UHGV virus genome: UHGV-1613228
DNA from: a virus
Length of the DNA: 12,378 bases
Direction: 5' to 3' (one strand)
The first letter of the stretch is position 1; each line of letters opens with the position of its first letter. Position numbers and translations under genes: made by a program. The notes beneath the pieces were generated by a model, which had not been told where the DNA came from, ran no database searches, and was given only the letters and a program-made list of their open reading frames with translations. This document shows, in pieces, positions 8,023 to 11,009 of this stretch.

Positions 8023-8049
8023 GCCCGCCGATTCGCCGGGCATTTTTTT
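8023..8049 (+). terminator. Intrinsic terminator or attenuator just upstream of the orphan gene
   Basis: GCCCG / CGGGC stem with a 9-nt loop, then A and seven T. It ends only 12 nt before the orphan gene's ATG and overlaps the region before its Shine-Dalgarno. Confidence 0.5.
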
Positions 8050-8061
8050 AAGGTGAAAATC

Positions 8062-8394
8062 ATGAAAGAGAAGACTGCAGCTGAGCGCTATGCCGCAGCT
8101 ATCAATGCCGCGATGGCGATTGTAAACCTGCGTGAAGAGATTAAAGATCTCCTTGCAATTATCCATAACAACCTGACATGTACAGAGTTGCTTGGCGGTC
8201 AGTACAACGGTGAGGCGGTGAAGGAGGCATTTAAAAATGCCGAGGTAGGAATAATTCCAGCAAACTATGTCAAGGCTGAATGTGTGCTCCTAAAGGCACG
8301 AGTGAGTCTGCATGAAGATCCTGGTAATCTCGGTCGAACTGCAATGCGTTACGTGATAGACGAGTCGAATGCCAAACACAATCTACCGAAATAA
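8062..8394 (+). CDS. Orphan hypothetical protein, 110 aa (moron cargo), function unknown
   Basis: ATG at 8062 with AGGTGA 5 nt upstream, TAA stop at 8392..8394, and its own terminator downstream. Opposite strand to all flanking phage genes. The ORF track's longer version (from 7924) starts at TTG and runs through three hairpins, so I reject that extension. No recognisable motif; no obvious transmembrane segment; predicted helical N-terminus. Confidence 0.7.
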   Translation: MKEKTAAERYAAAINAAMAIVNLREEIKDLLAIIHNNLTCTELLGGQYNGEAVKEAFKNAEVGIIPANYVKAECVLLKARVSLHEDPGNLGRTAMRYVIDESNAKHNLPK

Positions 8395-8398
8395 CACC

Positions 8399-8410
8399 GT
8401 GACATGTCAC
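8399..8410. promoter_or_regulatory. Perfect 12-bp palindrome GTGACATGTCAC, copy 1
   Basis: Seen directly. Lies between the orphan gene stop and its terminator hairpin. An identical copy occurs at 10664..10675, and the preceding C is also shared. Confidence 0.5.
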
Positions 8411-8414
8411 AAAC

Positions 8415-8443
8415 AGCCAGCCTATGAGCTGGCTTTGTTTTAT
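8415..8443 (+). terminator. Intrinsic terminator for the orphan gene, possibly bidirectional
   Basis: AGCCAGC / GCTGGCT 7-bp stem with a 6-nt loop, then TTGTTTTAT on the plus strand. On the minus strand the same hairpin is followed by GUUUGUG and lies about 50 nt after the TerL stop. Confidence 0.6.
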
Positions 8444-8484
8444 CCTCACCAGAGGATATCAACGACATTATCCCCACCAGCGGA

Positions 8485-9960
8485 TTAAGCATAGGGATCG
8501 TAATCTGTGATGGCCTTGCCTTGCTGGTTCTGCTGACCGGGAATTCGCAGACGCTTAGACACAGGGAACGCAAACGTCAGCAGTAGCGCATCGCCTTTAC
8601 CCGGTGAACGCCCAAGCCGCTCCTTGATATCTTCCTTCGGTTCGATAACGATTTTACCGTCCACTCGAACTTTGTACTCTGCCGCCGACAGGTCGTCTGC
8701 TGTTTCCTGGTCATCCAGCATGCCGCCCAGCCTCAGCCATGTCTTGCATGAATTGAACATCTCCCCACGCTTGTTGAGCATCTGCGGGTCAGTAGACGCG
8801 CCACCGAACGGAACAAGTTGCCATGTACGACCCCAGCCGTCACCGATTGACTTCAAACCGGTTCCGTAACCGAAGTCGATGAACACCGCGTCAGCCTGAT
8901 ACTGGTCTTCAAAGTCAGCGATACGCTTCGCCATAATCAGATCGTCGGTAGTCTTGTTGCCAGTCCACAGCACCTTACTGTGTAGCCCCTGCCGCAGGTA
9001 TATCACAGCGTCATCAACGCCGGAGTATGCCGGGTCAACGCCGATTATCACCGGAGCATGTGCAACCTGCGCAGCGGTTACCACCCGTTTCATTGCCTCG
9101 TCAGTAAGACCGGTAGGGATAAACTGCAATTCAGATGCATCAGGGAATATGCCACGCACACGGATTTTAACGAAGTCGCTGTCTTCCCCGTAGTCATCAA
9201 CCCATTTCTGCAACTGCTGTTTGTTAGTGCCTTCCACCGTCCGGCTGTCAATCTGCGCAGTTTTCCAGCGGTGTTTATATTTGCGGAAACATTCGCGAAA
9301 ACGCCCGGTGTTACGTGTAGGGTTTCCGAACGCCACCCAAATAATCTCAGTGTCTTCGTCCGTAAGCGCACCCTCGGCAACTTCCCACACCAGATCCGCA
9401 ATGTTCGACGCTTCATCAAACACCACGATGATGCGTTTGCGCTCGTTGTGTAGTCCGGCGAATGCCTCGGTGTTGTGCTCAGACCAGGGTATTGCGTCAG
9501 CCCGCCACCGCTTGTCGTGCCCTAGGTCATTGCTGTACATCGCGGTAGCGGTACAGGTAAACCAGTCTTTCGTGATAGCAAGGTTCGACCACTTGATAAT
9601 TTCCGGCCAGGTCTTCGTTCGTAGCTGGTTGTCGGTGTTGGCGGTCACCACGACCTTACAATCCTCGCAAGTGGACATGCCCCAGTTGATCAGCATTGAG
9701 ATGAATGCGGATTTACCAATACCGTGACCAGAAGCGCGTGCCAGCATAAGCGGCTGATAGCGCGTCTCTGGATTCTGCAGGTGATCACGTATCTCTCGGA
9801 ACGCATCAGCCTGCCACTGACGTGGGCCGGTGGCATGTGCCAGTTCAGTCCCCTCTTCCCCCCATGGGAACGCATAGAGGGCATAGCCAAGCGGATCGTG
9901 AGTGAACCCTGCAATATCCTCGATTAACTGCTCTTCAGGAGATAACGCTGTATCTGTCAC
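8485..9960 (-). CDS. Terminase large subunit (TerL), 491 aa
   Basis: Walker A-like ASGHGIGKS, Walker B-like VVFDEAS, and a C-terminal nuclease-type motif IIGVDPAY are all readable in the translation. GTG start overlaps the TerS stop (GTGA), with AGGA about 9 nt upstream. Confidence 0.9.
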   Translation of the reverse strand: MTDTALSPEEQLIEDIAGFTHDPLGYALYAFPWGEEGTELAHATGPRQWQADAFREIRDHLQNPETRYQPLMLARASGHGIGKSAFISMLINWGMSTCEDCKVVVTANTDNQLRTKTWPEIIKWSNLAITKDWFTCTATAMYSNDLGHDKRWRADAIPWSEHNTEAFAGLHNERKRIIVVFDEASNIADLVWEVAEGALTDEDTEIIWVAFGNPTRNTGRFRECFRKYKHRWKTAQIDSRTVEGTNKQQLQKWVDDYGEDSDFVKIRVRGIFPDASELQFIPTGLTDEAMKRVVTAAQVAHAPVIIGVDPAYSGVDDAVIYLRQGLHSKVLWTGNKTTDDLIMAKRIADFEDQYQADAVFIDFGYGTGLKSIGDGWGRTWQLVPFGGASTDPQMLNKRGEMFNSCKTWLRLGGMLDDQETADDLSAAEYKVRVDGKIVIEPKEDIKERLGRSPGKGDALLLTFAFPVSKRLRIPGQQNQQGKAITDYDPYA

Positions 9961-10553
9961 TGATTGCCATCCTGACGTTCTTTCAGTCTCTTCCTGGCTG
10001 CCGCTATGCGATCAGCAATTGTCACATTCACATTAACATCCAGGCGTTCTTTGAATGCGTTGACGTCGACGTGCTTACCAATCAGTTCGAGGTTCTTCAC
10101 CTTGTCAGGCCATTTAATTTTTTTGAGGATTGTCTCTATCGAATCCTCGTTCATGTTCATGATGGTCGATGACAGATCAAAGCCACTAAGCGTAGTGCGC
10201 CAGATTTTCGGCCACTCGCGGATTGGCTTAAGGCTCCCATCGTCGTTGAGGATGTCGATCACGTCCATCTGGTCGATCTCCACCAGGCGCATGAGAACGT
10301 AATCAGCACTGACGCGCATTCGTTTGTTGCGCTCTTCCATCAGCTCGGCAATCCGTTTTTGAATGCGTTCATCGCGCATCATGAGACTGGCTTTAACTGC
10401 CGCTGTATTTGGGGAGAATCCTGCGTTAATCGCTGCCTGAGTCTGGTTTTCAGGCGTTTTGATGTATGACTGGCAATAAGCCTCCTGCATTGCTGTTAGT
10501 GGCTTAAATTGCGTTGATTTGCGTTTATAGGTTTTAGGTTCAGCAGGCATCAT
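9957..10553 (-). CDS. Terminase small subunit (TerS), about 198 aa
   Basis: Immediately upstream of TerL and translationally coupled to it. N-terminal region resembles the DNA-binding part of small terminases (LTAMQEAYCQSY...INAGFSPNTA). The ORF track extends to a TTG at 10631, but that extension runs through a terminator hairpin, so I start at the ATG pair at 10553/10550. Confidence 0.75.
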   Translation of the reverse strand: MMPAEPKTYKRKSTQFKPLTAMQEAYCQSYIKTPENQTQAAINAGFSPNTAAVKASLMMRDERIQKRIAELMEERNKRMRVSADYVLMRLVEIDQMDVIDILNDDGSLKPIREWPKIWRTTLSGFDLSSTIMNMNEDSIETILKKIKWPDKVKNLELIGKHVDVNAFKERLDVNVNVTIADRIAAARKRLKERQDGNQ

Positions 10554-10560
10554 AACCACC

Positions 10561-10589
10561 GTGGTAATAGTTACCGTTGTGGTAATAGT
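10561..10589. repeat. Tandem direct repeat GTGGTAATAGT (2 copies, 18 bp apart) in the TerS leader
   Basis: Copies at 10561..10571 and 10579..10589, each followed by (T)ACC. Located between the upstream terminator and the TerS start codon. Confidence 0.6.
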
Positions 10590-10593
10590 ACCA

Positions 10594-10622
10594 TGCAAAA
10601 TAAAGCCGCCATAGTTGGCGGC
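10594..10622 (-). terminator. Intrinsic terminator between the early-region genes and TerS
   Basis: On the minus strand: GCCGCC-AACUAU-GGCGGC (6-bp GC stem) followed by UUUAUUUUG, about 40 nt upstream of the TerS ATG. Confidence 0.6.
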
Positions 10623-10663
10623 AGTATTCAAAACCCATCAAATTCATCATGCATAATCTACTC

Positions 10664-10675
10664 GTGACATGTCAC
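10664..10675. promoter_or_regulatory. Perfect 12-bp palindrome GTGACATGTCAC, copy 2
   Basis: Identical to the copy at 8399..8410. Lies between the stop of the 100-aa gene (10707) and the terminator upstream of TerS. It overlaps a -35-like GTGACA when read on the minus strand. Confidence 0.5.
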
Positions 10676-10706
10676 GCTATTAATTTCGTTTCATGCCAGC
10701 CTTTAG

Positions 10707-11009
10707 TCACCCAGCATTCCGAGTCACCATTACACGGGCATGAATTAACGGGAACTCTCTCGCCGCACTTACCGCAACGTTTCTGCTGATCGATTTTATA
10801 CGCCCGTGCACGCGTGCATCATCCTGGCGGATCAGTAACGCTATATACTCACCAAATTCGTAAGGCGCACGCCCGGGGCGACGCGTGGCACAGTTACGCT
10901 CCAGCATTTCAATTTCCTGAGCATCAAGCACAATTTCCAGCTTACGCACACCAGATGCAGCTTGTCTGGCTCTCTGAGCGGCTTTGCGCTCTGCTGCTGA
11001 TTTAGCCAT
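10707..11009 (-). CDS. Hypothetical small basic protein, about 100 aa; possible regulator
   Basis: ATG at 11009 with AAGGTGA about 7 nt upstream (the ORF track's 11012 start is a TTG). Arg/Lys-rich N-terminus (KAAQRARQAASGVRK). Last gene before the terminator and TerS. Function is inference. Confidence 0.55.
   Translation of the reverse strand: MAKSAAERKAAQRARQAASGVRKLEIVLDAQEIEMLERNCATRRPGRAPYEFGEYIALLIRQDDARVHGRIKSISRNVAVSAAREFPLIHARVMVTRNAG

Follow-up and report, generated by a model that had tools for sequence, protein, structure and literature searches.

Terminase genes bracketed by a repeated palindrome

Two exact copies of a 12 bp palindrome, GTGACATGTCAC, are present in a stretch of 12,378 nt from the virus genome UHGV-1613228 (the window), which represents an epsilon15/phiV10-type podophage (Uetakevirus) and is ~98% identical to Escherichia phages of that group and to many E. 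coli prophages. The left copy occupies 8399-8410 and the right copy 10664-10675; a C stands on the 5′ side of both, and the right copy is the core of a 14 bp palindrome, CGTGACATGTCACG, at 10663-10676. Most genes of the window lie on the minus strand, where an early region that includes DUF551 and ASCH-type genes is followed by a gp49-like gene with its ATG at 11009; next in order are the right palindrome, then a terminator, a dyad resembling a repressor operator, terS and terL. On the plus strand, convergent with terL, are a tRNA-Arg gene, an open reading frame (ORF) of 110 aa, the left palindrome and another terminator; then come the portal gene and other structural genes.

The two copies bracket terS (small terminase subunit, Pfam Terminase_2; 10553 to 9957) and terL (large terminase subunit; 9960 to 8485), both on the minus strand, and each copy stands beside a terminator hairpin, just as the first-pass annotation of this sequence had noticed. 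In particular, 4 nt separate the left copy from the downstream hairpin at 8415-8434, and the right copy is, on the minus strand, 41 nt upstream of the hairpin at 10622-10605. The same annotation placed both copies in intergenic spacers, which holds for the left one; the right one overlaps, in relatives, the stop codon of the intact gp49-like gene (10672-11009, minus strand; TGA at 10674-10672), a homologue of epsilon15 gp49, phiV10 p55 and N15 gp46 in family phrog_536, and is intergenic in the window only because that gene is frameshifted there.

By direct count, the window contains three perfect 12 bp palindromes, and about three are expected by chance from its length (12378/4^6); the chance that two of the three would be identical is, by simple arithmetic, ~3/4096 (~7e-4). 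The remaining palindrome, TGCACGCGTGCA at 10807-10818, is within the gp49-like coding sequence (codons ..DARVH..). A copy with one mismatch, GTGCCATGTCAC, is found at 5399-5410 inside the coding sequence of a Bbp19-like gene adjoining the portal gene; it is kept in phiV10 and absent from epsilon15, and is therefore probably a chance or coding match.

Conservation of three sites in epsilon15-type phages

The pair in the window belongs to a set of three copies, the third of which lies outside the window at the end of the structural operon. The exact 12-mer occurs at 2142, 19517 and 39612 in epsilon15 and at 2174, 19662 and 38653 in SPN1S, while phiV10 has exact copies at 2262 and 19493 and a one-mismatch right-hand copy that is split across the ends of its record. 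These phages share only ~77% DNA identity, yet the 12-mer is kept at homologous positions. The first-pass annotation had held that a motif scattered through coding sequence would speak against a function; instead, all three exact copies in epsilon15 and in SPN1S, as well as the two exact copies and the one-mismatch copy in phiV10, are located at gene ends. In these phages the right site closes the early-right operon, the left site lies where the moron slot after terL has its 3′ end, and the third site closes the structural operon, where the palindrome follows the last small gene and precedes a GGCCGC..GCGGCC terminator by 1-3 nt. Read the way the preceding gene is transcribed, every copy comes 1-41 nt before an intrinsic terminator.

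When 41 distinct right-site regions are aligned, three islands stand out as invariant, namely GTGACATGTCACG, the repressor dyad and the terminator. This terminator (10597-10622, minus strand) separates the gp49-like gene from terS; it consists of the hairpin at 10622-10605 and a T-run at 10604-10597, with TTTATTTT after the hairpin, and the epsilon15 record annotates a rho-independent terminator there. Across these regions, the spacer between palindrome and terminator measures 22 or 41 nt and differs in sequence. In the window, most of the 41 nt spacer is a remnant, ATGCATGATGAATTTGATGGGTTTTGA (10628-10654, minus strand), of the 3′ end of a 70 aa ORF (phrog_1541), whose remainder was removed by a deletion of ~186 bp; in some close relatives (e.g. 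L071), this ORF begins 9 nt after the palindrome.

The left site is similarly constant. Its 12-mer is exact in most of 80 close relatives, despite at least six unrelated cassettes abutting it and two versions of the terminator beyond it, and it is also exact in prophages of several other genera. Overall, the palindrome is almost certainly a real element under selection.

At the end of the lysis cassette, the stop codon of the Rz-like spanin gene is overlapped by a degenerate copy, which reads GTGACATGTCAT in SPN1S (L208, 26722) and GTGACATGGCAT in epsilon15 (L007, 26618) and may be a decayed fourth site.

Linkage to the gp49-like gene across phages

In relatives of the window, the gp49-like gene ends in ..GTG TGA CATGTCAC, where the palindrome begins at the G directly before the stop codon and thus contains it. 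PhiV10, epsilon15, SPN1S and most homologues share this overlap. In particular, a tblastn search of IMG/VR found the palindrome exact at the stop codon of the gp49 homologue in 118 of 125 homologue-bearing loci, at protein identities of 46-100%. Part of this set had been chosen by the motif itself, and a second set was therefore chosen by the protein alone, comprising 80 species-representative bacterial genomes (including Citrobacter, Klebsiella, Pantoea, Erwinia, Xenorhabdus, Providencia, Pectobacterium, Serratia and Rahnella). Here, the exact 12-mer lies between -1 and +27 nt of the stop codon in 43 genomes, and a one-mismatch form in 9 more. Over 484 kb of homologous loci, 71 matches to the general form GTGAC-NN-GTCAC were counted, compared to an expectation of 0.46, which bears out the earlier judgement that the recurrence is hard to dismiss as chance.

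The linkage of gene and site spans podoviruses, siphoviruses and myoviruses, down to 35% protein identity. For example, gene 46 of the siphovirus N15 (35% protein identity) has GTGACTGGTCAC at its stop codon, as does the homologue in the N15-like Klebsiella phage Kpn74; the myovirus ZF40 has TGTGACATGTCACA 3 nt past the stop codon of its homologue, and a P2-like Yersinia phage has TTGTGACGCGTCACAA at that of its own. Further, N15 carries three copies of its 12-mer variant, counted in either orientation, compared to 0.04 expected. These copies of GTGACTGGTCAC are at 28550-28561, 33237-33248 and 39269-39280 (L291): one is at the stop codon of gene 46, one is inside the replication gene repA, and another is 24 nt upstream of the -35 element of a predicted promoter into a terminator and an antirepressor operon (genes 32-30). 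In more distant homologues (~30% identity) from Vibrio and Aeromonas phages, the site is not at the stop codon.

The DNA downstream of the right site varies between phages: it can be the terminator and terS, a small ORF, a LexA-box promoter with a UmuD-like or uncharacterised gene, or an excisionase gene and an integrase gene. The downstream genes (two uncharacterised families, the UmuD-like gene and excisionases) have no common function, and the only constant partner of the site is the upstream gp49-like gene. In six loci (L089, L107, L118, L209, L210 and L217), a strong promoter, TTGACT-17-TATACT, begins ~6 nt after the palindrome, overlaps a LexA-box-like TACTGT-N8-ACAGTA and drives the UmuD-like gene or an 85 aa gene of phrog_2100. 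Together with the N15 copy that precedes an antirepressor operon, these LexA-box promoters had suggested a role in regulating antirepressor genes. This role was found not to be general; the genes after the LexA-box promoters are UmuD-like or uncharacterised. In Pantoea, Erwinia and relatives (L228, L230, L234-L236, L240, L241, L257, L282 and L285-L287), ~10 nt separate the palindrome from a second conserved short dyad, CCTGTTGCAGCAGG, which directly precedes the ribosome-binding site of the excisionase gene, with the integrase gene next.

Scanning IMG/VR with the 14-mer also gave many matches outside the epsilon15-type phages. Among the matches listed, the exact 12-mer falls on codons 2-5 (MRDMSQ..) of genes resembling the lambdoid Q antiterminator, and a further gene family has it within ..LLEGRDMSH.. 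(L094, L099, L104, L156, L197 and L206). These occurrences were treated as coding coincidences in homologous gene families rather than as sites; some of the contigs (L156, L112 and L119) encode a gp49 homologue elsewhere.

The first-pass annotation had suggested a dimeric regulator site for late transcription. Its first half is now the best-supported reading, based on near-constant arms, a free centre, a strict 2 bp spacing and a linked gene for a predicted ribbon-helix-helix (RHH) protein; nothing supports the tie to late transcription. A late promoter or Q-like unit was set aside, as the gene and its site also form a unit in phages with late regulators of their own, including a Q-like gene in N15 and a regulator gene at the Ogr position in the P2-like Yersinia phage, and as the promoter scan was not above chance. 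It is highly improbable that GTGACA at the edge of the palindrome serves as the -35 hexamer of a promoter, such as a late promoter into terS. A consensus scan does find GTGACA-18-CATGAT on the minus strand at 10675-10646 (9 of 12 consensus positions), and epsilon15 has GTGACA-17-TAAATT, as judged by eye. Against this, the region contains three promoter-like matches compared to 4.4 expected from shuffled sequence, the putative -10 element is not conserved at the left or third site, and the transcript would begin at or just before the terminator. Moreover, the ribosome-binding site of the next gene follows within 2-10 nt in many phages, which leaves no room for a promoter.

Another proposal is that the palindrome is cut, as a packaging start (pac or cos), a homing endonuclease site or a restriction site. 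The right copy adjoins terS, and the phiV10 record opens inside it, which had led to the cos/pac idea; that record was closed at the stop codon of the last gene, an annotation convention, and the idea was rejected. Three dispersed copies are unlike a single packaging start, the gene and site of the cos phage N15 are ~7 kb from its cos ends, and no nuclease gene is consistently linked. The nuclease site of the first-pass annotation is left without support, and cleavage of any kind is the least probable of the explanations weighed here.

The linked protein

The gp49-like protein belongs to a family (phrog_536) labelled 'transcriptional regulator'; other database names are 'hypothetical protein' and 'gp46'. 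It has no sequence match in Pfam, NCBIfam or PDB, and Foldseek found nothing significant against PDB. An AlphaFold2 model (mean pLDDT 73.5) has three helices (residues 5-19, 30-43 and 52-75), with an extended segment at 20-29 between the first two, and ends in a Cys-rich tail that is poorly defined. The model resembles RHH DNA binders and provides moderate evidence that the N-terminal part is a dimeric RHH DNA-binding domain.

The gene is altered in the sequence of the window. A deletion of one nucleotide in the A-run at 10780-10782 (A3, compared to A4 in 67 of 69 relatives) shifts the frame after about residue 76, so that the ORF runs out at 10707 with the predicted RHH part retained and without the Cys-rich C-terminal part. 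Either the allele is truly defective or the deletion is an error of sequencing.

Constraint on half-sites and spacing

The general form of the motif, GTGAC-NN-GTCAC, is most often realised as YGTGACATGTCACR, and its one-mismatch variants differ almost solely at the two central bases (AC, CT, GT or AG in place of AT). For example, the protein-chosen set contains two arm variants compared to seven centre variants. When the spacing between the arms was varied (GTGAC-Nk-GTCAC, k = 0-7), enrichment was found at k = 2 only, with 71, 139 and 11 occurrences in three data sets compared to at most 4 at any other k. No compensatory arm changes were seen in the IMG/VR or protein-chosen homologue loci. These near-constant half-sites, with a free centre and a fixed spacing, point to a symmetric dimer that reads duplex DNA, and the palindrome is probably a sequence-specific protein site on DNA. 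No co-variation of the protein with the arms was found; the arms are the same from 35% to 100% protein identity, and this comparison therefore adds no support.

RNA structure is an unlikely basis for the conservation. As RNA, the palindrome would form a small hairpin, GUGA-CNNG-UCAC, at the 3′ ends of mRNAs, where a phage or host factor could recognise it for antitermination, RNA processing or stabilisation of the 3′ end. All epsilon15-type copies are indeed transcribed, from the preceding gene towards a terminator downstream; the order of stop codon, element and terminator is like that of lambda nutR, which lies between cro and tR1; and the N-terminus of the linked protein, AERKAAQRARQ, is arginine-rich and helical. 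The calculated hairpin is weak, at -1.2 kcal/mol for the 12-mer and -3.6 kcal/mol for the 14-mer, and the left copy in its context has no self-pairing in the minimum-energy fold. The stem is near-constant without compensation while the centre of the loop varies, which is the reverse of the usual RNA hairpin signals. Moreover, no boxA-like companion was noticed, although no systematic boxA search was made; the predicted fold of the linked protein is that of a binder of double-stranded DNA; and antitermination at the left copy would run transcripts antisense into terL. Together, these considerations leave an RNA element with a small share of the probability. The palindrome is not itself an intrinsic terminator either: the 14 bp form at 10663-10676 is only a marginal match with 5 pairs and a poor tail, and proper terminators adjoin the palindrome.

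A cassette slot with the palindrome at its edge

The left site closes, on the 3′ side, a slot whose flanks are conserved. The 5′ flank (8023-8061, plus strand), which is the same before every cassette type in the relatives, contains a hairpin, a run of seven T and a ribosome-binding site, AAGGTG (..GCCGGGCATTTTTTTAAGGTGAAAATC), directly before the ATG; the 3′ flank consists of the stop codon, 4 nt, the palindrome, 4 nt and the terminator. In the window, the slot is filled by the moron ORF of 110 aa (8062-8394, plus strand; phrog_27507). RefSeq labels the equivalent gene 'Gp49 family protein', which is different from epsilon15 gp49. The intrinsic terminator of the cassette (8415-8442, plus strand), which the phiV10 record annotates as well, consists of the hairpin at 8415-8434 and TTGTTTTA. 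Its orientation is convergent with that of terL, and since TGTTTG comes after the hairpin in the terL direction, it may be active in both directions. The tRNA-Arg(TCT) gene (7787-7863, plus strand) lies within the slot region.

The slot ORFs of relatives have very different sequences and range from a few codons to ~140 aa. Across the 80 close relatives, the cassettes abut the left site within 4-7 nt. The third site likewise has a constant palindrome amid swapped cassettes, different modules come after the right site, and over the left and third sites together the distance to unrelated cassettes is 0-7 nt. In one relative (L008, 5470-6020), two cassettes stand in tandem, each ending in a stop codon, 4 nt, the palindrome, 4 nt and a terminator. 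Overall, the junction between conserved and variable DNA falls at the palindrome, and a module-exchange boundary, another suggestion of the first-pass annotation, can be confirmed as an observed property of the site. The palindrome either promotes exchange or is the stable edge left by exchange.

A purely passive version of this role, in which a short patch and its terminator are kept since recombinants joined there are viable and no dedicated binder exists, is very improbable. It would account for conserved and variable DNA meeting exactly at the site, for tandem cassettes that each end in palindrome and terminator within a slot conserved on its 5′ and 3′ flanks, and it fits with the RecT/RecE-type recombinases that epsilon15-type phages encode. 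A neutral patch would not hold 10 arm positions while two centre positions drift, and it would neither keep a fixed 2 bp spacing between phages with as little as 35% identity in the linked protein nor sit on the stop codon of one gene family in three morphotypes. In addition, 12 bp is short for homologous recombination alone.

A proposed protein-bound boundary between modules

The explanation that we favour is that GTGAC-NN-GTCAC is bound as a duplex by a dimer of the phage's own RHH protein (gp49/p55/gp46, phrog_536). The full reading, a site for an RHH dimer at transcription-unit boundaries beside terminators that doubles as a recombination junction, has somewhat better than even chances on the sequence evidence, and the gp49-like protein is probably the binder. 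Once bound, the dimer could mark a boundary: together with the adjacent terminator it would form a roadblock or insulator and curb read-through from one module to the next, as well as out of the operon of the gp49-like gene itself. At the left site, for example, a polymerase arriving from terL would meet the hairpin, UGUUUG and then the palindrome, where bound protein could, speculatively, stall it at a weak reverse terminator. As the 12-mer and the terminator stay constant while their neighbours diverge, they would also offer a homology patch for the exchange of cassettes and modules.

Several observations weigh against this explanation. RHH regulators normally act at promoters, whereas the sites are at gene 3′ ends and often in intercistronic gaps too short for a promoter. 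About one quarter of the homologue loci have no site within 3 kb. The geometry of the terminators is not uniform (1-4 nt from the left and third sites, 22-41 nt from the right site), so that a single roadblock mechanism is not clearly indicated; in many other phages there is no terminator at the site; and a roadblock directly before an efficient terminator looks redundant. Because of the variable terminator distance, the carriers without a terminator and this redundancy, the roadblock or insulator effect is proposed only tentatively and is itself doubtful. Finally, both palindromes are intact in the window even though its gp49-like gene is frameshifted and lacks the Cys-rich domain.

If the proposed pairing holds, it would provide a target sequence and a first testable function for the widespread phrog_536 family, which ranges over prophages of many Enterobacterales and over N15-like, P2-like and ZF40-like phages. 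A regulator site on the regulator's own stop codon and at operon ends, rather than at promoters, would be an unusual layout. The palindrome is also a sequence landmark for the entry and exit of moron cassettes in epsilon15-type genomes, useful for annotating prophages and for reporter phages such as phiV10. In the literature searched, there is no mention of the 12-mer, of matS-like phage sites or of the gp49-like protein, although the epsilon15 genome paper may mention the 12-mer; the GenBank annotation of epsilon15 lists sites for the repressor, IHF, RNase III and integrase as well as stem-loops, and not the palindrome.

Dyads resembling repressor sites beside terS

A dyad, ATTACC-N4-CGGTAAC, lies just upstream of terS at 10570-10586 (minus strand), and a second similar dyad is just downstream towards terS. 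The first corresponds to the repressor-binding sites of the epsilon15 record (ATTACC-N4/5-GGTAAT), which are annotated upstream of terS, gp3 and the tailspike gene. The palindrome was considered as an operator of the epsilon15 repressor and rejected, since the seven annotated sites have the form ATTACC..GGTAAT and their equivalent in the window is separate from it. Repressor dyads at these positions would place the packaging and structural operons directly under the control of the prophage repressor.

Comparison with known systems

RHH repressor-operator pairs, partition centromeres, lambdoid linkers, nut/boxB and integron attC each differ from the phage element in at least one defining feature. 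An integron attC site is an imperfect inverted repeat of ~57-141 bp at the 3′ end of a cassette, with an IntI integrase and attI nearby; here, the element is 12-14 bp long, the annotated genomes contain no IntI-type gene, and only the position at a cassette's 3′ end is alike. The CRP site is TGTGA-N6-TCACA, whereas GTGA and TCAC are separated by 4 bp, not 8, in the palindrome. Both were rejected.

Three further comparisons concern position. Like lambda nutR/boxB, the palindrome follows a stop codon, precedes a terminator and could form a small stem-loop; unlike it, the palindrome has a near-constant stem, a variable loop centre, a weak hairpin and a linked protein resembling a binder of double-stranded DNA. 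Like the linker sequences of lambdoid phages, it is a short conserved sequence at mosaic module joints with swapped flanking cassettes; unlike them, it is a strict palindrome with operator-like constraints, occurs at several junctions per genome and keeps to one protein family in phages of different morphotypes. Partition centromeres also lie downstream of the gene for their binder (P1 parS, F sopC and the dispersed sites of N15). In contrast to these, no partition ATPase gene is linked to the palindrome, most of its carriers are integrating prophages, for which a partition system is unnecessary, and N15 already has ParA- and ParB-like partition genes of its own.

SlmA binds a 12 bp palindrome, GTGAGTACTCAC, whose central four bases differ from ours (CATG here versus GTAC), for 8 of 12 matches, and the palindrome was rejected as an SlmA site. 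The outer four bases, GTGA/TCAC, are common to both, and those of the SlmA site agree with those of matS (PMC3116907). The resemblance to matS is closer. The matS site is 13 bp long, GTGAC[AG]N[TC]GTCAC, with a 3 bp centre (PMC3603311, PMC3116907), and the phage motif is the E. coli consensus GTGACATTGTCAC with one central base removed (PMC8669397, PMC3603311, PMC3116907). At 12 bp with a 2 bp centre, the copies in the window fall outside the definition of matS. Neither the window nor ~1.36 Mb of related loci and genomes contains GTGAC-N3-GTCAC, whereas the N2 form occurs 2, 71, 139 and 11 times in the four sets.

It is very improbable that a nucleoid protein of the host reads the palindrome as a matS-like (MatP) or SlmA-type site and so affects the handling of phage DNA. 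Besides the similarities in sequence, the hosts of the phages with the motif overlap the taxa that bear MatP. The absence of the 3 bp spacing speaks against it, and it would leave the linkage to the gp49 stop codon unexplained. Binding by host MatP is also opposed by indirect evidence, as matS is reported to be avoided in prophages (PMC3603311). A weak argument is that prophages of Xenorhabdus keep GTGAC arms while Photorhabdus MatP prefers GTTAC-N3-GTAAC (PMC8669397).

MatP and the phage protein have no detectable sequence similarity (hhalign probability 0.1, for the MatP sequence used). MatP has a four-helix bundle and a coiled coil, whereas the phage protein has a Cys-rich C-terminus, and the phage sites are at gene ends on the phage genome. 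As the motif fails the matS definition and the proteins lack detectable similarity, the resemblance serves as a lead on how the site is read and not as membership. A bolder proposal, which we consider speculative and rather unlikely, is that gp49/gp46 and GTGAC-N2-GTCAC are a phage-borne counterpart of MatP and matS that marks or bridges transcription-unit boundaries. If so, the pair would be a protein-dependent insulator or terminator, or an organiser of phage DNA, and the MatP or MukBEF of the host might be disturbed by it; the spacing, one base shorter, would separate the phage system from that of the host, and the sites would be punctuation for the shuffling of morons. The near-identity to matS raises the question of cross-talk with, or deliberate avoidance of, the chromosome-organising system of the host.

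Other parallels are RHH proteins and their operators, such as P22 Arc, Mnt, CopG, MetJ and the ParD/TacA antitoxins. The phage protein is predicted to have a similar fold, and the phage pair likewise combines a short palindrome suited to one dimer with a gene beside its site. In particular, the palindrome is, like an RHH operator, a short symmetric site with conserved half-sites at a fixed spacing. Many known RHH operators hold tandem sub-sites for binding by a dimer of dimers; the phage site is normally one 12-mer, and tandem copies are seen only rarely (L250, L261 and L247). The operators of the known pairs overlap promoters upstream of the regulated gene, which is often the regulator's own. 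The phage sites are instead at stop codons and 3′ ends, in a region where the promoter scan was not above chance, and a promoter lies just downstream in some relatives only (the LexA-box promoter 6 nt away, and the predicted -35 element of N15 24 nt away). With its site on the regulator's own stop codon and otherwise at the 3′ ends of transcription units, beside terminators, this would be a regulator-and-site pair with an unusual placement.

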